A stretch of 64,000 bases of DNA from Paecilomyces variotii (Eukaryota), in assembly GCA_004022145.1 (NCBI GenBank), contig RCNU01000001.1; one strand, given 5' to 3'. The notes under the pieces are model-generated. The model was given only the letters and a program-made list of their open reading frames with translations. It was not told where the DNA came from and made no database searches. Below are positions 42,769 to 64,000 of this stretch, piece after piece; position 1 is the stretch's first letter; every line of letters starts with the position of its first letter. The position numbers were made by a program, and so were the translations under genes.

Positions 42769-43544
42769 AATATCGCGGCCTTAAAGAGTTTAATGTTAAG
42801 GAAACGCAGGGTTAATTTTTGATAGTAATCTGCATTGCGCAGATAATTATAGAGCTTATTATTTAATTAGAAGATTGTCTAGTACAGCTAATATTTAAAT
42901 ATAGGAGCAATCTGTGTAGTATAGTTAGCATAGGTGTTATAGTTGTTATCGCCGTATTCTATATACTAAGGGTCGTTATATCCAGCTTAATAGCTGTCTT
43001 AGTAGTAACTCTTATATTCCTCAGAAAAATTAATTAGATTAGGGGTCTGATCTAGGGCTGCTGTATTATATATTTCTAACTTATAAGTATTATAATTGCC
43101 TTACTGCCTATAGTTCCCTTCTGCAATATCTATAGATTGCCCTATTTTAGCACTTGTATAGGCCGCAGCTTAAGGCTATACTAGAAAAGGAGGGCCTTAA
43201 TTGCTAGTATTATTTATATATTATTATAAGTAGGTCCTGTTTAAAGCTTATTAGTTCTAATTATTATATTAGTTCTAGCTATTATATTATAGGAACTAGC
43301 GTAATTATACTAGGGGTTAGCCTAGATTTTAAGTCTAGCGCTATAGCGTCTAATACTGCTGTACCTAAGCCGGTTAATATAATATTAAATAATTAGGATA
43401 GTTATAGCCTTAATAGTTCCTATTCTGTATAAACTATTATAAGGCTTTATCTCTAGTCTGGTTAGTATTATTAGTACTATCTTAGTTCTGCCTTAAGGAA
43501 TTTAAGAAGGGAGAATAATAGGAAAAGGTAGACTAGTTATATAG

Positions 43545-43750
43545 GTAGTTCGGTTCGGTTTGGGGGAGGGTTGGACCGCCTATAGCGGGTTTTAGTTTAG
43601 GGCAGAAAAACCATACCTAAACTGAACTGTATTCTGGCGGTTTAGTTTAAAACTAAAAAAACCAAAATATTCGCCAAGACCGGGCGCTAAACTAACTTAA
43701 GTTAGATTTTTCTTAAACGGTTTAATTTAAATGGTTTATACGGTTTACAG
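43545..43750. repeat. Left subterminal repeat array of E (cggtt/aaccg/aacta units)
   Basis: ttcggttcggtttg, gcggtttag, acggttta etc.; typical hAT transposase-binding repeats. Confidence 0.75.
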
Positions 43751-45799
43751 TGTTAAAGGTATTAATATTCTATATTATTTTATATTATTATTAAATTTAT
43801 ATCCTTTTAAATCTATAGCTAAAAAATAGTTTAGATATAATATTATTATATTAAATCTAAAAGTATAAAGATAGTCTTTTAAGATATTATTAAATATTAA
43901 TATAGACTTTAAAATAATTGTTATAGAAATATATATATATATTTATAAACTATAGTGCTAATAGAGTATTATTAAACAATATATATAATTTATTATAAAA
44001 GCTAAAGTTATTAAACTAAAGAATAGATTTTATTTACTATTATTATTCTTAATAGAAAGTAATTTCTAGATTATTCTTTTAATAAATTAACAATAAAATC
44101 TATATATAATTAGTAAGTTATAACTTCTACAGAAAATATATAAATTCTATATATTTATAAAGCTTACTAAAATTCTAACTTAAGTTTAAACTATTAAAAT
44201 TATATTATTCTTATAGCTATTTTTTTTTTATCTGGATATAGTTTTTAAGTCGAATATTATTTTTTTGTAATAGATAATCCCCCAATTAAACTATTTAATA
44301 TAGCCATTCTATTGTAAATTACAGATACTTATTTTACCTTAATTTGGCTCTATTAATATAATACTATAATAATAAAACTAAGGTCTTTTTTTTTACTAAT
44401 TTTAAGAAATAATTCTATGCTAGAAGAAGAAATTAATATAGTTATTTTTAGCCAAGATCTTGTAGATTATAATCCTAAATTATAAGATACTTTCCCTTAC
44501 TATTTAAGGAAGCAATTAAAGTAATCCCCTAAATATGCTAGAATTATTTATCTTAAATTAGATTAGCTACCTATATTTTTATTAGCATACTAAATATAAT
44601 AAGCTAGGTTGCTTAGTGTTTTTTTACGGTAAACTATAAGTAGAAATATATATCTTACATATTAATATTGGGCAATAAAATTTACTAATTTACCTTTTAA
44701 ATAGTATTAGGAAAAGAAAGAAAGCAAGGATAAATATAAGGGTATCCCTTAATCTTATTAAGCTAAATAAGAAATATAGCAATTTTAGATAAAGTAGCTT
44801 TAAGATTAGTAAAGATATCCTTAGGAATAATTAGATTAATCTTAACAGTAACTATTATAACCTAGGGCTAATATCTTTCTTTTCTAAAGGCGAATTAAAT
44901 AAGATAGTTTTAAAAGAGAAATATTAAGATTTTATAAAGTAATAATTAAAAGAAATTATAAGTTATTTATTATTATAATAGCTCTAGGTGCAGAGGGCAG
45001 TTTAAATAAATAATCTAAGCTAGAAAAGAGCATTTTAACTTAAGTTAGAATATACTAGAAGGTTATATTTAAAGTATTTAGTATTACTTTAGCTATATTA
45101 CCAAATAAACTAACTGTCGCCTATATATAATTTGGCCTATAGAGGAATAAGATAAATAATAAATATTATATGCTAATCTTTTAATTAAATATATCTAACT
45201 AAAACCTAAGAATCTAAAGCGCCTTTAAGATACTACTATAAACTATTAAGAAAGAAATATAAGCAGTAAGTTATTATAAGATATTACCGATAGTAAAGAT
45301 AATAACAAATTAAATATATAATAGACCTACTTATAATTTAACTTAAGTTAGAATTTATAAGTTTAGTCTCTAAAAAATAGGTAAGGCTTACTTATTTAAT
45401 TAGCAATAATCTTACTAGTAATAGTTAATTAGAGCAGTAATAGAATAATTAATAAGGGAGCCTAGGGAGTCTCTAATATTATATACCTATATATATGCGA
45501 TTTCTTAATTAGGTATAGTCTATATTAGGAGTATATATATTATATTATTTTTTCTTTTACTATATTTATTTTTTTCACTAAATATACTCTTTAATAAAAA
45601 GAGTGGATTTTAATCTAGTTAGAATTCAATTAAAGAATTCTAGGTAAGGAATAACGCATAGACTAGATAACAATTTAACTTAAGTTAGATTATTTTTAAG
45701 GATATAAGGGAAGATTATTATATATTATTATAAGTCACTAACCCTACTATAATTAAAATTCTAACTTAAGTTAAAGGCTTTATAACTTTACTTATTAGA

Positions 45800-48700
45800 G
45801 AGATAGCACAAATAATAAAAGCATCTATTAGATAATAAGGCAAACTCTCTAAGATTTTAGTGTAAAAAACCCAGCTAAAAGTATTAATAAAAGAGACCCA
45901 AGACTTATAATTATAGCAATTCTATAGAACCCTATTTAGATTTTAAGCCTATTTAGATTAATATATTATATAGGCTAAAGGCCTGCATAGCTAAGGCTAA
46001 AGTCTTTTTAATAATAAGAGATAATATAATCCGCGCAGAGCTCAAGAATAAATATCTAGAAATATTATATATAGATATAAAGAAGCTTAAAATATCTTAG
46101 AAAGATATAGAATACAATTAAGATATTAATACCAATTATATTAAGAATTTAAAGAATAAGTTCCGCATTAATATGCGGAGATTCGATGTTAATATATAAA
46201 TAAAAGCGACCCTAAGCATTAAAGACTTTAACCTAGCATTACAGGCATATATAGCAGAATTATTAAAATTAATAGATATTAGCAATATCTACAATCTCTT
46301 AAGGCAGCGGCAGGATAAAAATAGCAATTTTTTTATCTACCTAGAGAAATAACTAAAAGGGCTCGCGTTACTAATATTATAAGCCGGGCAATATTATTAT
46401 ACAGCTCTTTTAAAGCTGCTAACTAAGCAGAAAGAAATAGCTGCTGCTAAAGCTATTAATTATAAAGGAAAGATAATTAAAAGACTATAGGCTAATATAT
46501 ATTCTTATTTTAATTTAAATTAGAATTTAGCTAATTAATCTATAGGCATATCTCTGGGTTATTAATCTCTATAATAAGGCAATATTATTAGAAGTTCTTA
46601 CAGCATTATAATCTAATTATAAAGATATTACTCGCATTAATACTAATAAAAAATATATGCTTTTACTTATTAAGGAGTAAGAAAAGAAACCTATAGATTA
46701 ATACAAGGAACTGCTAAAGAACTATAAAGAGTTTAAAAATTAAGCATATCTTATTATTAATATATTATTTAATTATACAGCTTATACTATAGCCCCTTTA
46801 TATAATAATATTTAGTTATAATATTTATAGGAGTATTTATAGACAGCTTATAATTACTCTTATTAGAACTATATATTAGGAGAGATAATTATAAACATAA
46901 AGCTAGATCAAGTATATTTAAGGATCTAATTTTAATTTTAATTTTCTAACTTAAGTTAGATCTAGATTATAAAGTTTAAGAAATTTTTTAGCTTTGCTAA
47001 GATAATCTTTATAGATAAGTAAAGCGGAATAATATTAGCAAAAAATTAAAAACTAATTACTAAATATTACTACAGCGCGAGCAACTATACCTTATATATA
47101 TTATTTTTTCCTTTGTAGGCAGATTATAAAAATAATAGACTTAAGCTATCTTTAAATCATAGGTAGTTTAATAAATAATTATTGCCTTACTTAAAGATTC
47201 TTATACTATCTCTTAAAAACTCTATTTAATAACTATCTTTCCTTATAACCCTGCTAGATAAAGTATATATATAAATATAGAAGAATATTTCAGAAAATAG
47301 AGAACTTAAGTTCCCCTTATAATAAGTTCTAACTTAAGTTAGATATAAAAATTAATTATAAACTAATTATTATAAGAGCTTATAAATTAATCTTAATAAT
47401 AAAATTAGTCTCTTATTAAAATCTATGCTAAAATATATTATATTTTAATATAATTTAAAATAACAGTATCCTGCTACAGCCTCTAAATATCTCTAAGAAT
47501 TTTAATAGATAAATAAACTTTAATATTTCCTCTTTTATAAATCTAATAATATATATATTGTTAAGGGCTTTATAGAAAAACTTATTAATAAGCTTTATAA
47601 AGACTCCCTATAAACCTAGGCAGATCTAAAGCATTATATAATAACCTTATTTAACTATAATTAGAATTAATACTAATATCTTTTAGCTGCTAAAACTATA
47701 TAGCAACCTCTGCTTCTAAAATATTAAAGAATAAAATAGTTATAACTAATAATATATATATCTTTCTTATTTTAAGCGGCATTATTAGGCCTATATCCTT
47801 TATATAACTTCTGAAGTAGTCCTACTTAACTTTAAGAGCATTATAAATTAATTTAATAATAAGAGCGAGATTATAAATCTAGACTATTCTAACTTAAGTT
47901 AAAACTAATATAATATAGGGTAAATAACTTTCTACCTTTACTATCTTTAGTAGTATTATATAATAAGCCCAATTCTAATATAATAATATAGTAAAGAACC
48001 TGAGAATCCTAAAAATTAACTAATATAAAGATAACTTAAAGATTTAATCTAATATTGCCAGGGCTCTATAAATATATTAATCTATTAAGAGAAACATAAT
48101 TTATATTATAAAGCTTAGCTTTTCTAAGACTAATAATTATAAAAAGGATTCTAAGGATCTTATTAAGACTAAGGTATATATACCACTAATTTAACTTAAG
48201 TTAGAAATTAACCTAATTTAAGAAAAATAATATTAGTGCTTACAGGCACTAAGAGAGGTTACCAATCTTTTAATTAAGTAGGACTAGGCTTTAAATATAA
48301 ATAATATAAATAAATATCTATAGCGCTTTACACTAGACTATAATCTTAAAATTAAGAATAAATATACTATTTAGAAAAAGTTATATACGCCTTTTTTAAC
48401 CTTATTAAACTAACTACTAATAAATAAATGCCCTTATAATAATAATAAAAAATAATATAAGCTAGAGAATTAGAAACAGCTCTAAGCCATTACTTTTAAT
48501 ACCCTAAAAAAGAAATAGAAAGTATTAAAGGATTCTATAGATAAATAAATTAATATATCTATTCTAACTAAAGTTAGAATAAGATTTAATTAAAATTCTA
48601 GATTAAGATGTAGAGACTAATAGGGCGAATAATATGCCTTAAAAGAATAATATAGATAATAATAATAAAGGTAAGTTATTTTTCTTACTAATTATATTAT
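45800..48700 (+). pseudogene. Multi-exon cargo gene relic, DUF3723-like / ParB-DGQHR-like protein
   Basis: De-RIPed reading ~46027-46420: IRAELKNKYLG...YNRDIDTNHVKNLKNKFR..MRRFDV...LVLQAGQHRxAALLEL; next exon ~46547 AYLWVIDLYD; family call by motif recall only; boundaries approximate. Confidence 0.55.
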
Positions 48701-49229
48701 TAAATAGTTATAATAATATTATTATTATAAGTATAAAAGCGGGGCTAAGTTTTTAATTTAAATTTAAGTTTTTTAGTTTAGCTCTAGGTAAGCTATCTTA
48801 ATAATATTTACTTAATATATAAGAAACTAATTTAAGTTAAAAGTAAAATAATTAGGTTTTTTTTAGACTAATAATATAATCTCTACTTTTAAGTTAAATT
48901 ACTTAAGAATAGTTTTCCTCTAGTAATAAGAACTTATATTATTTAAAAGCTTTATCTCTAACTTAAGTTAGAGTAGATTTTATTAATAAAACAGAAATTA
49001 GTTTTTAAAGATTTAATTTAAGTTAATATAGCTATTGCTTTTTATTTCTATTTTAAGATAATAATTAGAGATAAAAAAGTAAGACTGTAAAGATAGGGAC
49101 TATAGAATAGAAGAAAAAAACAATATATCTTAATAATTTAGGCTGGCTCTATAGTAACTTAAGATATAAATATATCTAAGCAAGAATCTAACTTAAGTTA
49201 AAATATTATAGATATTATACTGCCGCCAA

Positions 49230-52060
49230 TATTATTATCTTTAAATTTCTTTTTCTCCTTGCTTTATTTTAATAGAGATATATTAAGATTATCGGGTCCT
49301 TTATTATAGTTTTAGAATTATATTATTTATACTCTTACAGAGACCTATAAGACTTCTTTATTTTTAGATATTAATATTTAAGATATAAATTTTAATTATA
49401 ATCCTATTAAATAATATAAGCCCTAATCTAAAGCTAATACTCCTAACTTAACCGAACTTAAGATAATAAGATATAATTAAGGAAAGGCTATTATCTATCT
49501 AGCTCTTCTAGAACAGGTTTAGATTTTTAAATCTTAATAAAGTAAAATAGAGTTTATAAAATAGCAGTCTAAGTTTTAATAAATAAAAATAAAGACTTAA
49601 TTATATATATAGCAATATTATTAAGAAGTTACAAATAATATTTCTAGCGTCCCTTATATATAATATTTATATTGCTCTATATTTTTTTAATATCCTTATA
49701 AAAGAGGAAATAGCACTAGCTTAATAGCCGCCTATATAAAAAGAGCTATATACTAATCTAGAGATAAGACTCAGAAAAATAGCAATATTTAAAATATATT
49801 AATTATAAAGGTAAGAACTAGATAATTAATATAAACTTTATTACTGATATTTTCTTTAGAAAACTTTTAATCTAATATATATACCAGATATATTATATAA
49901 TTAGATTCTGTATTTTATTATAGGATATTGCCAATTGTTTTAAATAGTTAAATATATTTAGTTCTGCTATATATTATATATAGCTGCTGGTAATTTATAT
50001 CTAGAGTTACTTAACCAATATTAGATTTAAACACGCCTTTTTAAACTTAAGGAGATCAATTATATTAAAATACTGTTATATTTATTAGAATAAGGAAAGA
50101 TTTCTCTAGTATTAAATTATTAGACTAATTAAAATTAATATTCTTTTCTTATTATAACTAGGTATTTTATTAATATAAAATAAGTATATAGAGAAATATT
50201 TTTAACCTTTAATTCTGTTTATAGATTATATATTAGGAAAAACTTAGCTAAAATACTACTAAAGAATCTTTATTAATATAATCTATAATATTAGATCCTT
50301 ACTATTATTATAGATAATATAAGTAATAATACTACCCTAATAGCGAAGCTAGATAAAAGCCTAAGAGATAAGCTTAAAACAGATTTATTATTAGAAGATT
50401 TCTAAGATATAATATTAAGTTAACTTATTTTAAATCGCTATTATATTCTATATTTAGCATATATTTTATAACTTACAGTTAATACTTTGCTAAGCAAACT
50501 TTATATTAATACTTTTATTAATAATAGTATTAATTAAGATATAAAAAAGGATAGAGGCTTATTATATCTTTAGGGTATCCTAATATTATTAAAAAAAGTA
50601 TTCTCTATCTAACTTAAGTTAGATTAATACTAACAGATTTCTGTATAGGTTTATAAGATTACTAGATTTATTAATGTAAGCCCTTAGCATTGGGAATATT
50701 TCCTAATACTATAATAATCAAATACTAGTTAGCTAAAATTATTACTTCTTAATTGCCGGACATAATAGAATTTAATATATCTTATACTTATATATGCCCT
50801 TAAACTGCGTGCAGTAATTGGACGATTTATTATATTATAAGCTAATAAAGATATTTGTTTTCTAATATTATCCCCTACTAAATGGCGTCAGGTTAAATAT
50901 CTTATTAAGTTAACCTAGCTATTTTATAATCTTATTCTCGCTGTATTAAAGATAAACAGTCTATTAATTTATAGGGTTTTTAAAATCTATAATACTATCT
51001 TTAATTATCTTAATAATTATATAAAACATTTAAAATTAAAAAGAGCTATATAGAAGATCTAACTCCGAGATGCTTTATCTAAAGCTTATAATAAGTTACG
51101 AACTTATTATGCCAAAATATATGAATCTTAAGGATTTATATATACAATTATAACAATTTTTTACCCCAGCGCAAAACTTAAATATTTTAAAACTTAGGTC
51201 TAGTAAGATATAATAAAAAACTGGTATAATACTTATAAAAAGATTTTTTATAAGGTATTTTAATACTACAGTAATTAAAATCTAAATATTAAGATATAAT
51301 TAAGAACCTATTTATTAGTCTTAACCTTAGATTATATGCTTACACGATCTAAATATTATTATTTCTCTTTAAGTACTACTAGTACTTATTAAGAAATTTA
51401 GACTTATCTTACTAAAAGTAATGTTCTATCTAATATTATATCTAAATCACATAATATTATTCTAACTTAAATTGGATTAGGTTTATCAGAATTAGATAAT
51501 ATCCTTAACTATTAGAGAATTAATAAACACTAATTCCTAATTCTTATAATAATAGCCTGAGATTTTCTTATAATCCCATTAAATAGTATTAGTATAGAAC
51601 AATTATTTAATAATACTTAAGATATCTGCTATTATTAATATAGCTAATTACTTCTTAATATAATCTATACTTTAATACTTCTTATATATACTAAAAATTT
51701 CACTATTTAGCAGGAGTTTAAGGCAATAACTAATAATATAGATATAACACCTGATAATCAATAATTTAAAAGGGAGAAGATTAAATCGCCAAATCTAATT
51801 AGTAATAATAAAGATATAGATAATATATTAGAAGGAAAGATAAATATAGATAATAAAGATTATTAAATAGAGCAGTTTAGGGGTTAAGGTCTTTTAAATA
51901 TTTAAATAGATTAACCTATTATTAAGTCTACTTATAATAAAGGAGAATAATTAGATAAATTGCCTATACCTAGAGTTTCTATGTATCCTTGGAGAAACAC
52001 AGTAACTATAGATAAACCTAAGTCTTCTAGTTATTGCTTATACCAGATTAACTATATTAA
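49230..52060 (+). pseudogene. hAT transposase relic with introns
   Basis: De-RIPed: ILTITxDNASNN (~50295-50330), PCLAHILQL (~50447-50475), DCRTRWNSTYLML (~50750-50790), RDFLxIPxSGVGVERLFNSARDIC dimerisation domain (~51558-51630); introns ~50575-50648 and ~51418-51480. Confidence 0.88.
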
Positions 52061-52229
52061 AGGCTAATATAAATATTAAGAATCTAACTTAAGTTAGACT
52101 CTAATATTATATTCTAATATTATTCTACTAATTTTTAGTTAATATTTAGTAATAGATATTATAAAGAAATAAAAATCTAAATAGTTCTTAAAGATTAATA
52201 AGATTTATATAAAAATTCAGATTAATCTA

Positions 52230-52420
52230 AAGTAACTAAAAAAAACTAAAAAAACTAAATTAAACCAAAAAACCCAAAAAAACTAAACCTAAAAAAACTA
52301 TATAATGCACTATAAACTATCAGTTCGGTTTATAAAGTCTATAAACCGTTCCGGTTTATAAAATTATAAACCGAACTAAATTATAGGCAGTTCAGTTCGG
52401 TTTAGTTCGGTTTTTTTAGT
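52230..52420. repeat. Right subterminal repeat array of E
   Basis: aaaacta/aaacc/aaccg/ttcggtt units. Confidence 0.75.
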
Positions 52421-54653
52421 TTTCTATAACTACTCTAGGAAAAGGTTCTAATATTATTATAGTTATATTGTTAATAATAGTATTAATTCTCTTTTACCTA
52501 TTTTTGCTATACTATATAAGCTTTTTTAACTATTTAGATAAAGTCTAACACTGTAATATTTTCTTATAGCGCTTATATATCGCGCTTAAATAATAGGGAA
52601 AACCTGTTTTATACAGCTAAGAGTTAACTATATATTTCTTTTATTCCTATAGCGTTTAATAAATATAATACTTATTAAATAAACTCTTAAGGAATTTAGC
52701 CCGCTATAATGTCCTATATAATATAATATAAAGACTTAAGCTATTTTATAATAGCTACAGCATTAATCTTAAAATATTTTATAAGCTATAAAATCTAACC
52801 TTCTTTAATAAGACGCATATATAAAACTTTATAATTATAGTTAGATAGCTTAGCTATATATTATTATAGGGCTAAGCTATATAATAATACTTAAATATAG
52901 CTTTATATAATAGGTTCCTCTTTTATCGCAGCTAAATTACAGATCTAATTAATAAAAATATAGATATCCTTATAATAAGTATAACTTCCTATTATTATAA
53001 TAGGACCTATTCTAATATAGTCTTTATTACTTAAATTAAGGTAAAAATATTCTAGCTTTATTTGCTTCTATAGCATATTATTAACTATAGTACTTATTAG
53101 TATTCCTGAGGCAAATCTAGCATTTAAGTTTACTAAGAGATTATAGCTAAGAGTTTAGTTTTAAACTAATTACTGCTATTAGTCTTGCTATTATTAATAT
53201 TGCTATTATTAATGCTAGTATTAACTGTTATTTTAATCTATATCATTTTAAGCTATATTATTTTAAGCTATATTATTCCGATTTATAAGGTATTTTATTA
53301 TTTAGCGATTTTAGTCTAATATAGCCTTTATATTTTCTACTATTTACCAATTAGATTCTATTATTTATTAAAACATCTCTATTAATATAGTATTAGAGTC
53401 TATAGCCGGCAGTACCGGGGGTATAGCTGGGTTAATAATATTTACTATACTATTAATGTTTGCTGCTAGCTATATTAAGGTTTTATCTAAATAATATATT
53501 AGTAAATCTAGGAAGGAACGCGGTAGATTAAATAATAAAACCCTCTAATATTTAGCGCTCTAGCTCTAGAAAATAGAATTCTGAAGTCTAAGAACCAGAT
53601 TAAATAAAGCTAGGCAAGGAAGTATAGCAACTAGGATTTATAATCTAGGTTACTTCTGCTAGTATTTATCTTATAATAAAACTATAGAGGTACTATAAAA
53701 ATATATAAAATATAGTTTACTTAGCGGCTATATAGGTTCTATTATAAAATTAGCTAAGTCTGCTATATTAATCTGTTACTTCTAGAAGGCAGGGTGCTTT
53801 ATTAATATTAAGGTAAACTTAAGAAAGTCTTTAACAGTACTATAGAGTATAGATTAATTTATTACCTATAACACAAGAAATATAAATTATTTTATTTAAG
53901 GAGGAGATACCTATAGCTTAATCTAAAACACTTTAATATAGGCTAATAAGGTATACTTTAAGGAGTTATATTCTAGGTAATAGGATAAGATAAAATTAAT
54001 AAGATTAATAGTTTTATAGTTAAACTAATCCCTAAACTAAGAAGTTACTGTTTAAAACGCTGCTAAACTATATATAAGCTCTAATATTTTTTTAAATAGT
54101 GCAGGGAGATATTAGCTTTAATCTAAATATTAGCTCTAATCTATCTCCTCTAAAAGTTAGCTTATTATAGAGGCTTAACCTTAGCTTCTCTAGGCGAGAT
54201 GCCTAGTAGGGGAGACTAAAGCTAAATTATAATAATACTAGAGATAAAAATAATAAAACTAATAATAAAATACAGAATTCTAATAAAAAAAGTAGGGCTT
54301 TAAATATAAGTATTCTTAGCTAATCTATAATATCTCTAGGCGTAAGATATATAATAAAGTGGCTTAATATAAATAATTTCAATAATAGACATTAAATTAG
54401 GAGTAATAGAGGCAGAACTTAATAATATTAAGATAAATCTTAATAAAAAATAATATAAAGAATAGATAATATGAAGACTCTGCTAATAATAAATAACTTT
54501 ATATATAATAGAGAAGAGACTGCGGATAACCCGCTAGCGTTAAGAGCTAGCTTAAAATAATAATAATTAAATAATACAGCAGATTATTATAATAGTTTTT
54601 AGGATACTTCTAATAATAATTAAGCCCTAGATAACCTTAATATACTACTAAAT

Positions 54654-55854: not shown

Positions 55855-57187
55855 ATAGTAATAAAGTAGCTAAATAGAAGGATTTTATAAGCCTATATTT
55901 AGAGCTTTAGCCGGGGCTAGTTTAATAAAATTAAATTATTCCTATTAAGATTCTTTTCTTCTATAGTTTATATTCTCTTTAAAACTCTTAAACCTAGTAA
56001 GAAAATAAAGAAAGAGTAATATATATAATAATATATTTAATAATAGTTAAAAAACTTAGTAGGAGAAAAAGTATTATTACTTATTTATCTTACTTTACTT
56101 TCTATTTTTTAGCTTTTTTTTATATTATCTTTACTTAGGCGGCTTATTTATATTAAAAGCCTTATTAGAGTTTTTACTGCAATACTCCTTTAAAGCTTTA
56201 GTTATATATAAGATCTTCTAATGGCTGCTATAAGTTCTTATATAAGGGATATTTTTTTTATTTTATTAGGAACTGTATTTTCCTATAAAAGGTTTATTTA
56301 TTAAAAATTTCTTCTATCTCCTATTTTTATTCTCTATTAATAAAAATTAGATCTAGCTATTTAGGTTTTATTCCTTTTTATTAATTATAGGGCTTTAGCA
56401 GAGATATATAGAATATTAAATATATCCTGCCTAGGCTCTTTAGCAGTTATAATTAGTATACTTACTTTTTAATTATTTTAATTATTTTATAGGGCCTAGA
56501 AAATCTGTAATTTAACTTCTTATTAGGTTAATTAGTTTATAGATTCTTTATTAATAAAAGAACTTTATCTCTTATTTTATATAACTTAGGCGTATACTTC
56601 TTATTATAGTATTTTACTTGCACCTTAATAGCGCATTATAAATATTTTTTTAACTTTACCTTAATATTTATTAATTCTTTAAGTTATTCCTTAATAGTAG
56701 GAATATTTAACCTTATTCTAGTATTATATTTATTTTAACTATTAGGATTAAAGCTATAAAGGGCTTTAAATAGCAAATATCTAATACTAGAATATTTTAT
56801 ATTATTATAAGTATATTCTGCTGTACTTAATAATAACGCCTAGTTATTTTAATAATAATTTATATATACCCTTAGGTAATACTCTAAGGTTTAATTCTAA
56901 TACTTTATCTGCCTATTTATCTGTAAATAAAAAGCAGTGCTTATTAATTAGGTAATCTATATATATTAATAAAGCTTAGTCTAGTATTTACTAATAAATA
57001 CTAATTCTTAATTAAAGATAATTAATATTAAAGGGCTAAATTAATAATATACCCTTTTTATAATTAGGTTAGCTAGGTCTTCTACTATAATTATTTCTTA
57101 AGTTAAGATATATAAAGCTATCTTAAAGTATTAGTCTACAACTATTAAGATTATATTATATTTAACTCTTTATTAAGTTAAAGATAA
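55855..57187 (-). mobile_element. Chromovirus F fragment (integrase core, GPY/F motif, chromodomain); host of A6 and C
   Basis: Minus strand de-RIPed: YDAILVVVDRYSK (~57125-57165), FLGPYKI (~56485-56503), FHVSLLEPY, chromodomain WEIEEI...FLVKWKGYP..ENSW (~56200-56330). Confidence 0.82.
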
Positions 57188-57528
57188 TATTATAAGAAAG
57201 GGTATTAAGACTTAGCAGTAAGTCTTAGAGCATAAGAATATAGAGAAAGGGAAGAATAGCTTAAGTCTTTAGGCCCTAAGATTAAGCTAGAAAAGAAGCT
57301 TAGAGAATAAGGTAGTATAATAAAAAAAAGGTTACTTTAATACTAAACTAATATTAAAATATAACTAAGAGGGGATTATTTATTTTATTCTATATTAACT
57401 AATTAATTAATGCCCTTTCTCCCCTTATATCTTATTAGAAATATTTAAGCTACCTTTTTTAATAATAGTATATAACTTGCTAATCTAATTATATTCTTAA
57501 AACCTCTTTATTATTTTCCCTTATTATA
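57188..57528 (-). repeat. 3' LTR of A6
   Basis: 341-bp family A LTR. Confidence 0.93.
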
Positions 57529-60500
57529 TAGCCTCCCCTTTTTTATATATAAATACCCCTATTTACCTTTTTTAGTTATTATAATTTATACTATTTCCTT
57601 TTTTTAATATTATAAATTATTCTTAAAACAGGAATATTCTAGTTTCTAATATTATATATATCTTAAAACCCCTAATTTATAAAGCTGAGTTCTTTTCTTC
57701 TGTAAATAATCTTAAACTAATAATATATCTTATTTTAGTATAAAGTATAGCTCTGCTTTAATTTTTAAGTAATTTTAATTTAGTTAATTAAGTATTGCTC
57801 TACCTATAGCTATAACTCTATTTACCTAAATATTAAAAGGCCCAGATTCTCTTTAATTAGATCTTATCTTATCTTATTTTCTATAATTAAAATAGCAGAT
57901 ATTATTAAGATTTATTCCTTAATTCTTTAATATTAGCTAATATAAATTGCTAATAAAGATTACTTCTCCTTGCTTAAGTATAATATCTCTTAAGCCTATA
58001 ATTTTCTTAAACTTATCTTTAATAATTAGTCTAGTCCCTAGGATTATAAAGCCCTAGCCTATTCTTTTTTTAAGGATTATAGTCTCTATGTTTAATACTC
58101 TTAGCTTATATTTTTTAAGATACTAGACCTATAATCTATATTTATTATAACTATATAATATTAACTAGATTAAATAAATCTAGATATTTTGCGCAATAAC
58201 CTTCTAAAAAATATTTTAAGATAAGTTTTTAAGCCCTATTAATTCTTTATCTTCCTTTTTATAATAAAGGGCTGCTTTTGCTTCTATAATAATATATTAT
58301 AATATTTCTTTTACTAATTTCTCTTTAAAAGGTATAATTTAAAAAACCCTATTTATTTCTTAATAATTAAAGTCCTCCCTTATTATAATATCTAATTAGA
58401 TATATTAATTCTATATCTTATTTAAAGTAAAGTTTTTTTTGCTTAAATTAAAATATTTTTTGTCTCTATACTTAGATTTAAGATATTTTTTAACCCTATA
58501 TAGATTATCTTAAGCTTTATAATATAAGCTGCTAGGTATATTATTAGAAGTATTTATATTAATTAACCTAAGATCTCTAAATAGTTAAACTATTCTTAAT
58601 ATTAGGGATTTCTTAGAGAGAAGATCTTTAGATAAGGTTTTTTTAATTTCTATATTATCTTTATCTTTTATATTTTTAAGACTTCTTAGAATAAGACTTT
58701 TTATTTTTTTTTAATCTGGCTATTGCTAGATATACCTAATATTTATTTAACCTCTAAGTTATTTTTAAATTATATAGTTTTAATATTTCTTATATTTTTT
58801 AAGTACCCAGTTTCTTTCTTAATAAAGGGATCTTTTAAGTTTACCGCAGAAAAGGAGGGCTTTTTAAGATTTTTTTTTATTTTTTAATTTATTAATCTAA
58901 ATTACTAGAGGCGCTTATTTAAATTTAATATTATTTAAAAAGTTCTGTAGCTACTCTTCTAATAATATCGCTAATAAATAATATATATTTTTAAAAAAGG
59001 CTTTTATTTACTGCTTTATAGCTATTAGCATTATTTTAGTTATTATTTTTAAAACTTCTCTAGTATTTCTAGCTAATATTTCTTTTTTTACCCTTATTAT
59101 ACCCGCTAAAAGGCATATATAGAGTTTATAAATCTCTTAAAGCTTCCTTAATATTAACTAGTATAATGCCTCTTTAATATCCTTTTCTATTATTAATTTG
59201 CTATTAATTTAGCTCTATTATAGTAAGTTATTTTTATTACTGCAGTTATAGTCCTTAAAAAATATATTTAGATAAAAGCCGTATTAAAACTACCTCTAAT
59301 ATTTATTATATATTAATAAGTTATAGAGATTATTATTATTTTTAGTAAATATTTTTAATCTTTTCTTTAATAATTTTTCTTTTATTATATATATATTTAA
59401 TATTATTTAAATCTTATTAGCATACTTATAATAGAGTTTATTAATATTAGTTCCCCCTTATTAAAGGCTATTTATAACTTTTTTATTTTTTTAGCTAAAA
59501 AGCGCCTTTTTAAGTAGTTCTAATATCTTAGTCCTATAATTATAGCCTTTTTTTATTTATTTTTCTTTTCCTTATATCTTAATCTTTTTCTTATCTTTAA
59601 GTTTCTTAGGGCTTTTTATTTTTTTTTATCCTTTTTTTCTTTTTTTATCTTATTATTTTCCTTATTGCTAATAATAAGATTAACTAATAAGCTCTTTTTT
59701 AGGTCTTTAATTATTCTTTTTGCTTTATATTCTAGAATCTCCTTTAAAAAGAAGTCTTCTCTAATTTATATATTAATTAATTAAAGCTCTATTTTTATTA
59801 TTTTAAATAAAAACTATCTACTCTTATTAGTTATCCTTTTTAAAAGGTCTCTTATTTTTTTAATATCTATTAGTAGTAAGTTTCTTTCTAGCTATATGCT
59901 AGATTTTTTAATATTTAATAATCTATTTATTTAAGCTTATATTAAGTAGATAGCTGCTGCTCTCTACTTCTTAATTTATTTTATAATTTCTCTTAATGCT
60001 ACTAAAGTTTAATAGGCTTTCTTAGCTTATATTATTAACTAGCTAATTACTTATTCCCCTTATACCTCTATTATTATTATATATCCCTTATTTATATAAT
60101 TCTTATTCTCCCTTACTTTCTTTATTAATTTTTTAAGTTCCTTAATAGCTTTCTTCTCCTTAGCTTAAGCTTTTTTTAAAAGCTTTTATTATTTTAAGAA
60201 CTTATAATAGTCTATTATAGCCTTATTTTATTTAATTTAAAATTTTATAATAATAGCTATTACTCTAGCTATAAACTTAATCTTTTTTAATCTATTCTTT
60301 ATTATAATAATTACTCTCTTTATAAAATTATAAATCTTTCTTATAGTTATATAAATATTTATATTAAACTTTAGCAACTATTCTTATAAGATAATATTTT
60401 AAATTTAGAATATATTTTCCTCTATTTTAGCTTAGTAAGATTATATAATAGTTTTAATTTAGCAATATTTAATATAAAAAGGGGGTATAAAATAATTAGA

Positions 60501-61223
60501 CTTAAATTTTCTAATAGTATTTATAGAGAAAGAAGTAAGATTCTTAATATAAAATAAGATTTTTTTATTGTTATTTTATATTCTTTATCTAATATTTTCT
60601 TTTTTTAGTAATTAAAAGAGTTTAGCCTTACTCTTCTAATAATATATATATATTCTTTTATTTTATTTATTTTTAAGTCCCTTCTCTCCTTTAAAAAATT
60701 TAAGCGCCCTTATTTTTAATTTATTTGCTCTTTTTTACCCTAAGCTAAATCTTTATCTAATATTAAACTTACTTTATTACTAGCCTTTTACTTTCTCTTT
60801 TTTTAAGCTAATATTTTTAAAAGGAGAGTGCTAAGACTATAACTGTATATATTAATCTAGGTAATATTTAGTTTATATTATCTTTATTTTTGCTTATTTA
60901 CTAATTCTTTTACTTAGATTTTATATTATTATTTATTGCTAATATACCTCTTTAATTATCTTATAAATAATAGCCTTTTAAATAATTTCTATAAATTAAG
61001 TTCTTAAAAGCTATACTATTTAACTTCTTATACTTATAAGAACCTTTCTAAAAGACTTTTTTAATTTAATATAGTCTTAGCTAGCAATATATTAGTTTAA
61101 TAAAATAAGATATCTTAAGCTTTATATTATAAAGTAGAACTAGTTATTCTTTAATTAGTTATTCTTTATAAAGCTGCTTTCTATTATTAAAGACTTCTTT
61201 ATTAGCTTCTTTTATATACTAGA
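57188..61223 (-). mobile_element. Family A copy A6, 3' part (interrupted by D2)
   Basis: 3' LTR 57188-57528, PPT complement tagcctcccc, collinear with A1 2238-~6270. Confidence 0.92.
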
Positions 61224-61383
61224 TAATAGAGTTAGGGGATAAAGAAGTTAATTTCTATAAGCTATATAAGGAAGTAACTATATAGCTAAGTCGTTGCCTA
61301 AGGCTTCTATACCTCATACCTCTATGCCCTACTAAGATAGCAGGCGGCGCTAAGATAGCATTATATACTCTGTATCCCTGTCA
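61224..61383 (-). repeat. 3' LTR of D2
   Basis: Homologous to the D1 LTRs. Confidence 0.9.
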
Positions 61384-64000
61384 GTATACCCCCTTCGAAA
61401 AAAATATCATCATCCTCAATAACAGAATATAGAAATATATATAGATATAGTATAAGATATAGTTAAACATTCCTATAGTTTACCCCCTTTTACGCTTAAT
61501 TAATAGGGTTATCTACAGTTCTATAGTTTAATATTATTTATAGGATTGTCTATATCTACATTTCAATAGCTTAGCTAGTAGTCTAAGATATTAGTTATAC
61601 TCCTAGATAAATTTATAAGCATTAGCTAAGTCCTTAAAATAATACCAGATATTATAATAAGCGCTATATCTCTTTTAGCAAACTAAGTACTTAATAATAG
61701 TCTTACCTTAAACTCGCCGGACGCAATAGCTAAATAGTGTCTTAATTTTATAATAACTAATATTAGTATCTTTTATATTAATATGCAGCGGCGGAATATT
61801 ATTAGAGGGTATAGGATATTTAAAAGGATTATTTATATAGTATAGCTCTAGATAAGCAATAAAGAAGATATTATAATATTTCTAATAAGCTAGGATATTT
61901 AACTAATATGCGAGACATTTAATCTTACGCTTAATTATAAGCGGTCCTACATATTATACTAATAACTTCCTTCTAAGAATAGCTATACTAGGGATATTAT
62001 ATTTATAGTATAACCTTAATAAGACCTTATTACTAGGGGTAAAATAGATTAGCCAGTAATTTTTATTATATACACACTTAATATTTATAGCAGCTAAGCG
62101 AAGTGCTTTACATATATTAAGTTATAAGGTAAAATCTTAGATTTCTCTGTTATAGAGGTTTATAGCATTACCTAGTTAAGTACTATATATTAAATTATAT
62201 AGGGACCTTATTATAATAGATAATAGGCTAGAGTTTAATACTAATTGCATTAATAATAGAACCTTAGGCTAAGCTATAATATTTTTTAAAGCAACTAAGT
62301 AGTACTATAGAGTAATTTTAGCTATTTAATTTATTTACTCTAACTGCCTATCTATTTATAAGTAATATACTATTAAATATAGTAATTTAGTATTAAGATA
62401 CTTAAATAGGCCTTTCTATAAATTTAATAGAAACTTTAAATTACGATTTAATAGGATTACTAATAGAATGCCTTAATTATTAATCTGAAATTATTTAAAT
62501 AATACTAAAGCCCAGTCTTTAGCTGTCTATATATCTTGCCCCGGTATAAATATAACTTGCTTTATAAATTTGCAAGTAATAGTTAAGATTTAATTATATA
62601 GCCTTATATTTAGTAATCTTATGATAAAGTCTATAGTAATTATATAAAAAGGGATATTTAGTATAAGGATAGGCTAATAGCTGCTATAAGGTACATAATA
62701 ATATATTTAATTTATCTGACATAAATAGCAATGTTTAATATATATTTTAATTTACTTTATAAGTTTATAGATTATAAAGTCGCGAATATTAGCGATTATC
62801 TAGTAATACCCAGGGTATCTTATATTATTATAAGCTATTTTAAGTATATTCTTAAGGACTAACTGTAGTATATAGAGATATTACATATTATTAATATTAA
62901 TTATATAAAGGAGTTTATCGCAAATTATAAAAGGAAAATATGCAGAATTTATATTATCCTATAATATAGTAAGAATCTTAGACTAGTAAGAATTAGTTTT
63001 ATAGCCTTCTTTTAATTAGGTCTTAAATTTCTATAATAACTTAATAAGAGTTATATTATATTATAGCTTATCCTTAGTATTATTAGTATATGTAGTTCTG
63101 AGAAATATAGTAGCTAAATAGTATTTAATATCTTTTAGTATAGGGGCATATAGCTTAATAGAGAGTAATTTAAGATATAATAGCGCGTCTATAATAATAT
63201 TATTATATCTTAGCTTATATATAAGCATAATATTAAATCTCTGTATATATTGTAATATTAAGATAAGGTATAAGTTAATTTAATCTATAAATATTAATTA
63301 GAGAGATATCTGCTTAGTAATTATAATTATAGTGCTATAGTCTGTAAAAATAATTAATAGCTTTTAATAAGCTTTAATAATATAGTATATCTTATATAAT
63401 GCCTATATTAAATATACTATCTTTATTTTTATTAGCTAATATCTCTTTTTAGCTATATTAAGCTATTTTAAAAAGAATATAATTAGCTAAACTTTTAGTC
63501 GGTTAGATATAGCCTTAAGAAGCTTATAAACTGCGAAAAGATAGTAATTATCTAGCTAAGCCTTAGTATTATTATAAAGGTAATACAGTATAATACTAAA
63601 GCCGGAGATATTAGTATTAATATTAAAGTAAAGCTGGCGCTTCGAGTTATAGTATATAAGGAAAGATAAATTACTAAAATGCCTTTAAATAGCATTATAT
63701 ATATCTATCTTAGCTTATAATAGTAAAGCTAGGATTATATTTTTTATAAAACTTTACTATGCCTTTTTTTTTATAGGGGTTCTATTTAGAAATACTGTCT
63801 TCCAATCCTATAGGGGCTGTATAATCTTAGTATATTAAGGGATATATTGCTTAAACTATTCTATTAAGCTAAGGTATAATTTTAATATTTAGGCTATATA
63901 AGGGAATAGGATATTAATTATAGCCTTTACCTTCTTACTAACAGTACTTATTCTTAATAAGTTAATATAATAACCTAGTAGTTATATAGAGAGAAATCTT
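61224..64000 (-). mobile_element. Chromovirus D copy D2 (3' LTR, chromodomain, integrase, RNase H; continues beyond window)
   Basis: LTR 61224-61383 ending tgtca; PPT complement cccccttc just after; chromodomain EYLVRWKGYGAHHDIW (~61640-61695); integrase TAYHPQTDGQSE (~62335-62375). Confidence 0.88.

Follow-up and report, generated by a model that had tools for sequence, protein, structure and literature searches.

A 64,000-nucleotide stretch of the genome of the fungus Paecilomyces variotii (contig RCNU01000001.1 of assembly GCA_004022145.1, hereafter the window) contains, at positions 43529–52437, an 8,909-bp hAT-type element which holds about 18 copies of one perfect 16-bp palindrome, TCTAACTTAAGTTAGA, together with the relic of a transposase gene and, upstream of it on the same strand, a second, intron-containing gene. 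We propose, at odds of roughly one in three, that these palindromes are double-stranded DNA recognition sites of a dimeric protein encoded by the element itself, the best candidate being the product of this second gene, and we hold a role of the palindromes in RNA splicing to be nearly as likely. The whole window bears the traces of repeat-induced point mutation (RIP), with a G+C content of 17–33%.

One Inactivated Copy of a Mobile hAT Family

The element is flanked by a perfect 8-bp target-site duplication (TSD), GGAAAAGG, and bounded by short terminal inverted repeats (TIRs) of the form TAGA(C/G)TAGTTATA, the two ends of which agree at 13 of their first 14 bases. CGGTTT occurs eight times in the window, each time near an end of the element, no farther than 213 bp from its left end or 112 bp from its right. 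Ac-like hAT elements have this very layout, with an 8-bp TSD, short TIRs and subterminal motifs. The alignment to the window, at a likeness of at least 80%, of contigs from four public sequencing runs (3,439 aligned pieces in X1, 2,759 in X3, 3,030 in X6 and 390 in X20) yielded differences almost confined to C>T, G>A, T>C and A>G, and it also located the ends of the element: loose contig ends with mutually dissimilar flanks occur exactly at 43529 and 52437 in X1, X6 and X20, the summed contig depth makes a step at both ends, and several contigs fuse the left to the right flank with only one GGAAAAGG-like octamer in between, as expected of paralogous empty sites. Since the exact ends are shared and empty sites exist, the element, which is single-copy within the window, belongs to a mobile family with many copies, and it sits inside a repeat that also exists without it.

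A six-frame Pfam scan of the element, with X at stops, returned nothing except a weak match to PF05699 (hAT dimerisation; nt ~51498–51617, + strand), which in this RIP-degraded frame reaches 13.7 bits (E 0.057) and stays below the 21.4-bit cut-off. The same frame contains, by eye, T-stop-stop-N in place of TRWN and IFYPSAKLKYF in place of ILDPRxKL, two motifs typical of hAT transposases. No homologue of the transposase frame emerged from a word-based search, which leaves this transposase without an identified intact relative; stop density, for its part, is uninformative after RIP. Overall, the TSD, the TIRs and the behaviour of the copies place the element in the hAT superfamily, as one RIP-inactivated copy of a multi-copy, autonomous-type transposon. 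The claim of a first-pass annotation of this DNA that an 8.9-kb hAT element with a transposase is bounded here by a TSD and TIRs is thereby borne out by the perfect duplication, the 13/14 agreement of the ends and the contig breaks, the transposase domain being only weakly visible after RIP.

An Array of One Ancestral Palindrome

At two mismatches or fewer, TCTAACTTAAGTTAGA has 16 matches in the 64-kb window, all of them between 43691 and 52098 and none outside the element, when 0.34 are expected by chance; the largest number seen in 100 dinucleotide-preserving shuffles is 2, and none reaches 16. Allowing three mismatches raises the count to 21, of which 19 are inside the element and 2 outside (4.85 expected), and the 10-base core AACTTAAGTT is found 15 times inside the element and nowhere else in the window. 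The at least 15 copies that the first-pass annotation had described as confined to the element are thus confirmed. Chance, or the convergence of AT-rich sequence under RIP, might be thought of in a window as poor in G+C as this one; with no shuffle reaching 16 and all copies gathered in 14% of the window, this explanation is refuted and its probability is negligible.

The flanks of the 16 copies (150 nt on each side, aligned locally in both orientations) show no similarity except where they physically overlap, so the repeat unit is the 16-mer alone, and a longer unit or whole-intron repeats around the palindromes were rejected on this ground. The copies have no flanking target-site duplications either. 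Excision footprints of the Tc1/mariner or hAT type were also considered as an origin and rejected by reasoning, the 16-mers being identical at unrelated sites and devoid of flanking duplications. Across the 16 copies there are only 13 mismatches, nine of them C>T/G>A, and all 16 positions are conserved, the central TTAA and position 16 (exonic at intron 2 of the second gene) included; half-sites alone do not exceed background. The copies are spaced by 86–1421 bp and, where this can be resolved, occupy non-coding places only, namely both mapped introns, the region that precedes the second gene (with copies 45674 and 45760 about 190–290 nt before its start, 45760 being the nearer) and both subterminal regions. 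In all six frames, TCTAACTTAAGTTAGA contains a stop codon. A tandem-repeat search gave nothing relevant, and Rfam has no family in the window.

RIP acts here at rates that depend strongly on context (CpA 0.52, TpG 0.74, CpG 0.45–0.62, CpT 0.03), and the palindrome, which contains no CpA, TpG or CpG, is effectively RIP-proof; as it lacks the dinucleotides that RIP hits, its survival in the window copy needs no selection. At its positions T3 and A14, T/A is found in 31 of 32 instances, although RIP altered only 52% of CpA and 74% of TpG sites. On the basis of these rates, TCTAACTTAAGTTAGA is the ancestral sequence rather than a product of RIP, and an ancestral form TCCAAC...GTTGGA, prompted by copy 51461, is ruled out.

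Some further observations concern the palindrome. A second palindrome, different but with the core of the first, GAGAACTTAAGTTCCCC (GAACTTAAGTTC), stands at 47306–47322, 6 nt upstream of the perfect copy 47328. A rearranged member of the family seems to be represented in X1 and X6 by contigs that join 50601 back to 44545 with ATTCTC in between, both breakpoints adjoining palindromes (50601 is 7 nt before copy 50608, and 44545 is 2 nt before the degenerate copy 44547). The exact 16-mer also occurs in prokaryote genomes, in at least 120 stretches. A rough signature of the flanks assigns 67 or more of 121 occurrences to one conserved repeat of ~100 nt (TTGATAGA..GTAGAAGGCTGGC-palindrome-ATCCGAATTTGATCGAAAGTACA...), and most of the 80 loci listed are, by title, from filamentous cyanobacteria (for example L072:6221-6236, L113:115-130 and L113:6318-6333). 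Rfam has no family for this repeat in four loci, the genes around it in L113 are of an ordinary biosynthetic kind, and the whole looks like an undescribed dispersed repeat of cyanobacteria. We rejected a kinship with the fungal motif, because the prokaryote 16-mer belongs to this unrelated cyanobacterial repeat and the identity is judged coincidental.

A Second Gene in the Element

When 1.84 billion representative proteins were searched exhaustively by phmmer with the + frame 44430–48029 (X at stops), only P0001 (238 aa, E 2e-33), a hypothetical protein of P. variotii, and P0002 (45 aa) matched; a further search added P0003 (368 aa) and P0004 (153 aa), which belong to two more strains of P. 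variotii. P0003 is placed on the window by tblastn in two pieces, and three exons are colinear with it over 368 of 368 codons, without an indel and with 232 identical residues. C>T/G>A changes suffice to account for 133 of the 136 codon differences, where shuffled pairs give 23%, and for all 19 in-frame stops. The differences being of this kind, the window copy is a RIP-mutated version of the P0003 gene, and P0003 shows the product that it encoded. The element thus carries a second, intron-containing gene, on the same strand as the transposase and upstream of it, the closest relatives of which are three P. variotii hypothetical proteins.

The stop of the P0003 model is shared by the window. 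P0004, a divergent P. variotii paralogue, tracks P0003 up to LDQIWV, that is, to the junction at palindrome 46945 (window ~46960–47000), then lacks ~13 residues and goes on for at least 16 residues beyond the P0003 stop, an extension which suggests, though no more than that, a true length above 368 aa. A search for longer homologues of P0001 found none, and scans of metagenomes, viruses and prokaryote genomes with P0001, alignment A1 or P0003 as query found no related locus. Codon-position periodicity is too weak to map further exons in the element, the stretches 43.7–45.9 kb and 47.2–49.5 kb included. What the first-pass annotation had taken for ~4.5 kb of additional spliced coding relic is accordingly confirmed for a second spliced gene of 1.2 kb (368 codons, two introns) out of the 5.8 kb that precede the transposase.

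The same annotation had called this gene ParB/DUF3723-like, and some features do lean that way. Residues 136–149 of P0003, LPILQAGQHRRAAL, comprise LQAGQHRRAAL, in which a GxxR(R) signature follows a hydrophobic strand and precedes a helix; this GQHRR pattern is that of the arginine patch of ParB and of the DGQHR motif. In NCBIfam, P0003 and P0001 both match TIGR03187 (DGQHR) best, the former at 22 bits (E 1.1e-4) with an alignment that begins at G142 of GQHR, the latter at 19.4 bits (E 6.9e-4). In a protein-language-model search, DUF3723 clusters came nearest to both proteins (0.93–0.95); 22%, 78% and 97% of the members of these nearest clusters carry PF12520, and the shared features, 144–169 of 256, are just under the level of true members.

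Several results weigh against this likeness and, with it, against the second-gene product as a ParB-like binder. The TIGR03187 scores are far below the curated cut-off of 58.85 bits. Pfam, searched up to E<=10 with P0001 and P0003, gave no match to PF12520 (DUF3723), PF02195 (ParBc), DndB, DUF262 or the ParB clan. A DGQHR profile that we built from 35 distinct cyanobacterial proteins (36 extracted, one duplicate dropped) aligns only with GQHR and the next helix, at 5.6–7.6 bits in hmmsearch and, in hhalign, over 14 columns with a probability of 3.8%. AlphaFold, run without a usable alignment, gave unusable models (pLDDT 39.5 at full length, 44.0 for aa 41–223), and Pfam, NCBIfam and PDB sequence searches identified no helix-turn-helix or other DNA-binding domain in the 368 aa. 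NCBIfam found no match in the RIP-degraded translations of the window itself, nor did Pfam find a ParBc match in the six frames of the element; the PDB sequence search returned nothing relevant, only a chance match to a GST (E 1.5). We thus treat the resemblance to ParB, DGQHR and DUF3723 as a weakly supported, motif-level lead, and the gene as not demonstrably a member of any of the three: the AGQHRR motif, the sub-threshold TIGR03187 match and the DUF3723 neighbourhood of the earlier claim stand, and family membership, for which Pfam has no match and hhalign only 3.8%, does not. As regards the literature, the function of DUF3723 is stated to be unknown in the portions available of PMC9156397, PMC11162782 and bioRxiv 10.1101/2025.02.28.640899. 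Judging from titles and the first lines of abstracts, every paper on DGQHR that we found deals with prokaryotes, and the literature searched contained no paper joining DUF3723 or Starships with ParB.

Palindromes as Possible Splicing Signals

The first-pass annotation saw in the palindromes possible landing sites of the cargo protein, and this idea is complicated by their position in introns. Two introns, no more, interrupt the 1.2 kb of coding sequence that could be mapped, with boundaries taken from the predicted P. variotii gene model, and both contain a copy. At intron 2, the TAG of the palindrome is the exact point at which the model connects LDQ with IWI, and the palindrome's CTAAC, the fungal branch-point consensus, lies 10 nt upstream of that AG; by this model, one copy is itself branch point and 3' splice site. 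At intron 1, the copy is in mid-intron, with GCTAAT and then TATAG downstream, and the two introns have nothing in common but their type of donor and the palindrome, which is differently placed in each. A candidate third case is copy 51461, where cutting out 63 nt (GTAATG at 51418 to TTAG at 51480) would keep the frame and bring the start of the hAT dimerisation match to a usual distance from an E..YL relic. By our own estimate, about 0.4% of random palindromes contain CTAAC, and a palindrome that has CTAAC and TAG at 10 nt, both apparently used by the P. variotii model at intron 2, points to a role at the RNA level, which counts against a protein-binding site on DNA.

On this basis, the palindrome may be a splicing module, in which it would serve as branch point (CTAAC) and often as acceptor (TAG) of the many short introns of the element. 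Its self-complementarity could then form a hairpin that pairs branch point with acceptor and regulates the output of transposase and accessory gene, as in the intron retention of the P element, or could make a signal that works in either transcript orientation. We consider this nearly as probable as the protein-binding proposal set out below. In addition to the two of two mapped introns and the 48-nt intron 2 that ends on the palindrome, it gains from the ancestral status of TCTAACTTAAGTTAGA, which RIP did not create, from the restored spacing at copy 51461, from the exon-like distances between copies and from strict donor hexamers, found 40–110 nt upstream of 4 of 16 copies on the + strand (8% background, P 0.038) and of none of the 16 on the minus strand. 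Under a relaxed donor definition, however, the enrichment is not significant (5 of 16 versus 15%, P 0.07; 6 of 16 versus 32% on either strand), so that it is suggestive at best, knowing that RIP destroys donors. Moreover, splicing, for which ~8 of the 16 positions suffice, accounts neither for the perfect dyad nor for the central TTAA or the last A, which is exonic; the copy of intron 1 stands away from the acceptor, in an intron that has another branch-like site and AG; copies 43691 and 52083 are unlikely to be intronic; the hairpin of the isolated palindrome RNA is weak (-4.6 kcal/mol, z -2.2); and the intron boundaries come from a gene model predicted in another genome, not from RNA. Contigs of X20, an RNA run, are colinear over copies 45760, 48563 and 48957 and over part of intron 1, without splice joints; they could stem from DNA or from the transcription of dead copies, and say nothing for or against splicing.

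A Proposed Protein-Binding Role

Starting from what is established, namely the anatomy of the element, the mobility of its family, its RIP history, the identity of its second gene and the position of its introns, we put forward a mechanism whose binding, fold and function are inferred. A dimeric element-encoded protein would recognize the palindromes as double-stranded, cis-acting sites. The second-gene product, with its ParB/Srx-type (A)GQHRR motif and its resemblance to DUF3723, would be the best candidate for this binder because the transposase already has classical subterminal repeats of its own, its sites probably being the separate CGGTTT repeats. The coding density of the element would explain why the sites have their place in introns. 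The 3' end of an intron (CTAAC...TAG) is already a partial palindrome, CTAAC and GTTAG being reverse complements of each other; such sites could readily have evolved from it, and this would account for their doubling as branch point and acceptor. A protein bound there might coat the element, help the synapsis of so long an element, or control transcription or silencing. Several points count for a protein-binding site: the perfect dyad, which includes the exonic position at intron 2 and the central TTAA and is not required by splicing alone, the copies amid the subterminal repeats (43691) and past the transposase (52083), where introns are unlikely, and the confinement of the copies to the element, their unrelated flanks and the lack of solitary half-sites above background.

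The arguments from dyad symmetry and distribution apply just as well if the palindromes are protein sites read by the hAT transposase (for example through an N-terminal zinc finger) or by a host factor, the second gene having an unrelated role. Such a binder gains from the lack of any DNA-binding domain among the search results for the accessory protein, and hAT transposases do bind multiple internal or subterminal short motifs. Their known sites, however, are short and asymmetric, an Ac-like set of subterminal repeats is already present and confined to the ends, and a host factor has to be reconciled with the absence of the palindrome from the other 55 kb of the window, though all of this consists of RIP-degraded repeats; we therefore think this explanation distinctly unlikely. 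Still less probable, in our view, are functionless palindromes that arose as small insertions or repair products in a master copy of the family and were tolerated in non-coding DNA, or spliced out through CTAAC...TAG in either orientation. The stops in six frames, the shortness of both mapped introns (48–49 nt, one copy each) and a motif without CpA, TpG or CpG, which persists without selection, would all agree with this, but we know of no mechanism that inserts an identical 16-mer at ~18 places, the copies have unrelated flanks and no target-site duplications, and none is found in the surrounding 55 kb.

Our proposal of an element-encoded binder can be carried one step further, to a point that we regard as unlikely. 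The element could carry a ParB/parS-like module on a eukaryotic cut-and-paste transposon, in which a DUF3723-related protein with a ParB/Srx-type GQHRR nucleotide-binding motif would load at ~18 dyad-symmetric sites along the element and coat or bridge it, the sites having been built from branch-point and acceptor sequences so that one 16-mer would serve functions at both the DNA and the RNA level; the DUF3723 proteins of Starships would then be clamps of the same kind.

Relation to Known Systems

Compared with hAT elements of the Ac/Restless type, the element is alike in its 8-bp TSD, its short TIRs starting with TAG, its CGG-containing subterminal clusters and its putative C-terminal hAT dimerisation region (a match below the cut-off), and differs by its 8.9-kb length, its second conserved gene and the perfect 16-bp palindrome that it holds internally in ~18 copies. 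In the literature searched, which included PMC13004909 and was available in part, neither a conserved second gene of such a kind nor an internal array of a single palindrome was found for a hAT element. With bacterial ParB/parS, the element shares the presence of several 16-bp perfect palindromes per replicon or element, and the accessory protein shares a hydrophobic strand, GxxRR and a helix, as in the ParB arginine patch and the DGQHR motif. In contrast, parS sites are few and clustered, whereas ~18 sites are spread here over 8.4 kb in a eukaryotic host, and the accessory protein is under all family thresholds, for ParB as for DGQHR, DndB and DUF262, with no helix-turn-helix found.

The DUF3723 auxiliary genes of Starships are fungal and transposon-borne, like the second gene, and are the nearest language-model neighbours of P0001 and P0003. 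According to the portions available of the works concerned, they are among the most consistent passengers of Starships (PMC9156397; bioRxiv 10.1101/2025.02.28.640899) and are carried by Starships of P. variotii (bioRxiv 10.1101/2025.02.28.640899). The second gene differs from them in lacking a PF12520 match at E<=10, in being carried by a hAT element rather than a tyrosine-recombinase Starship and in being known over 368 aa. Introner-like elements and other transposon-derived introns, finally, resemble the present case in that several introns of one locus owe their splicing signals to an identical sequence; here, only 16 nt are common instead of whole introns, the copies are confined, within the window, to one transposon family, and some copies stand where introns are unlikely.

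Positions of the Features and Surroundings of the Element

The features of the element are collected in table 1. The rest of the window is an island of RIP-degraded repeats with no sign of intact genes; positions 1–31700 and 57000–61400 consist of several copies of other large repeats, 78–91% identical, in both orientations and with 17–25% G+C.

Table 1. Features of the hAT-type element, in window coordinates, with mismatches counted against TCTAACTTAAGTTAGA
Feature	Position	Strand	Evidence or remark
Left TSD, GGAAAAGG	43521..43528	.	Perfect 8-bp direct repeat; single octamer at paralogous empty sites, joints 43509->52439, 43516->52448
Left TIR, TAGACTAGTTATAT	43529..43542	+	13/14 first bases are the reverse complement of the right end; contig divergence exactly before 43529
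Left subterminal region, GTTCGG/CGGTTT short repeats	43548..43746	.	Element positions 20-213
Palindrome, 1 mismatch	43691..43706		Amid left subterminal repeats; 162 nt from left end
Palindrome, 2 mismatches	44174..44189		GTAAGT 76 nt upstream of TAG position
Possible degenerate palindrome, 3 mismatches	44547..44562		One mismatch non-RIP-type; may be chance
Palindrome, 1 mismatch	45034..45049		
Palindrome, 1 mismatch	45337..45352		GTAAGT 86 nt upstream
Palindrome, 1 mismatch	45674..45689		GTAAGG 45 nt upstream
Palindrome, 1 mismatch	45760..45775		
Accessory exon 1, 178 codons	45963..46496	+	tblastn with P0003/P0001; codon colinearity; ATG mutated to ATA; AGQHRR relic here AGQYYY
Intron 1, 49 nt	46497..46545	+	Gap between P0003 tblastn segments, frame shift of 1; holds degenerate palindrome 46509-46524
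Degenerate palindrome, 3 mismatches	46509..46524		All C>T/G>A; mid intron 1
Accessory exon 2, 122 codons	46546..46911	+	tblastn with P0003; codon colinearity
Intron 2, 48 nt, GTATAT...TCTAACTTAAGTTAG	46912..46959	+	P0003 reads LDQ/IWI across; end is TAG of palindrome 46945-46960
Perfect palindrome	46945..46960		Branch point + 3' splice site of intron 2
Accessory exon 3, 68 codons	46960..47163	+	End of P0003 model
Perfect palindrome	47328..47343		GTATAT 80 nt upstream
Palindrome, 1 mismatch	47888..47903		
Palindrome, 1 mismatch	48190..48205		Minus-strand GTAAGC 53 nt away
Palindrome, 1 mismatch	48563..48578		
Probable degenerate palindrome, 3 mismatches	48826..48841		Two C>T/G>A + first-base change as in copy 43691
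Perfect palindrome	48957..48972		
Palindrome, 1 mismatch	49187..49202		
hAT transposase relic (approximate limits)	49980..51900	+	Lowest stop density in frame +2; PF05699 match; motif relics by eye
Perfect palindrome	50608..50623		In transposase region, followed by TACTAAC...TATAG
Palindrome, 2 mismatches	51461..51476		In candidate 63-nt in-frame intron 51418-51480, just upstream of hAT dimerisation domain
Perfect palindrome	52083..52098		Past transposase relic; 339 nt from right end
Right subterminal region, CGGTTT/AAACCG repeats	52323..52423	.	
Right TIR	52424..52437	-	Contig divergence exactly behind 52437
Right TSD, GGAAAAGG	52438..52445	.	Identical to left octamer

Implications

From the perspective of mobile-element biology, a high-copy hAT family that pairs a DUF3723-like, GQHR-motif protein with a 16-bp palindrome would constitute a compact and testable system of one protein and one site. 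The presence of one and the same 16-mer in every mapped intron, where it can be branch point and acceptor in one, is an unusual architecture that bears on the origin and regulation of introns in mobile elements, and the fact that a palindrome of a RIP-proficient host is itself RIP-proof may reflect either chance or adaptation. Should the ParB/parS-like reading be true, the DUF3723 auxiliary genes of Starships would encode the same kind of DNA clamp.

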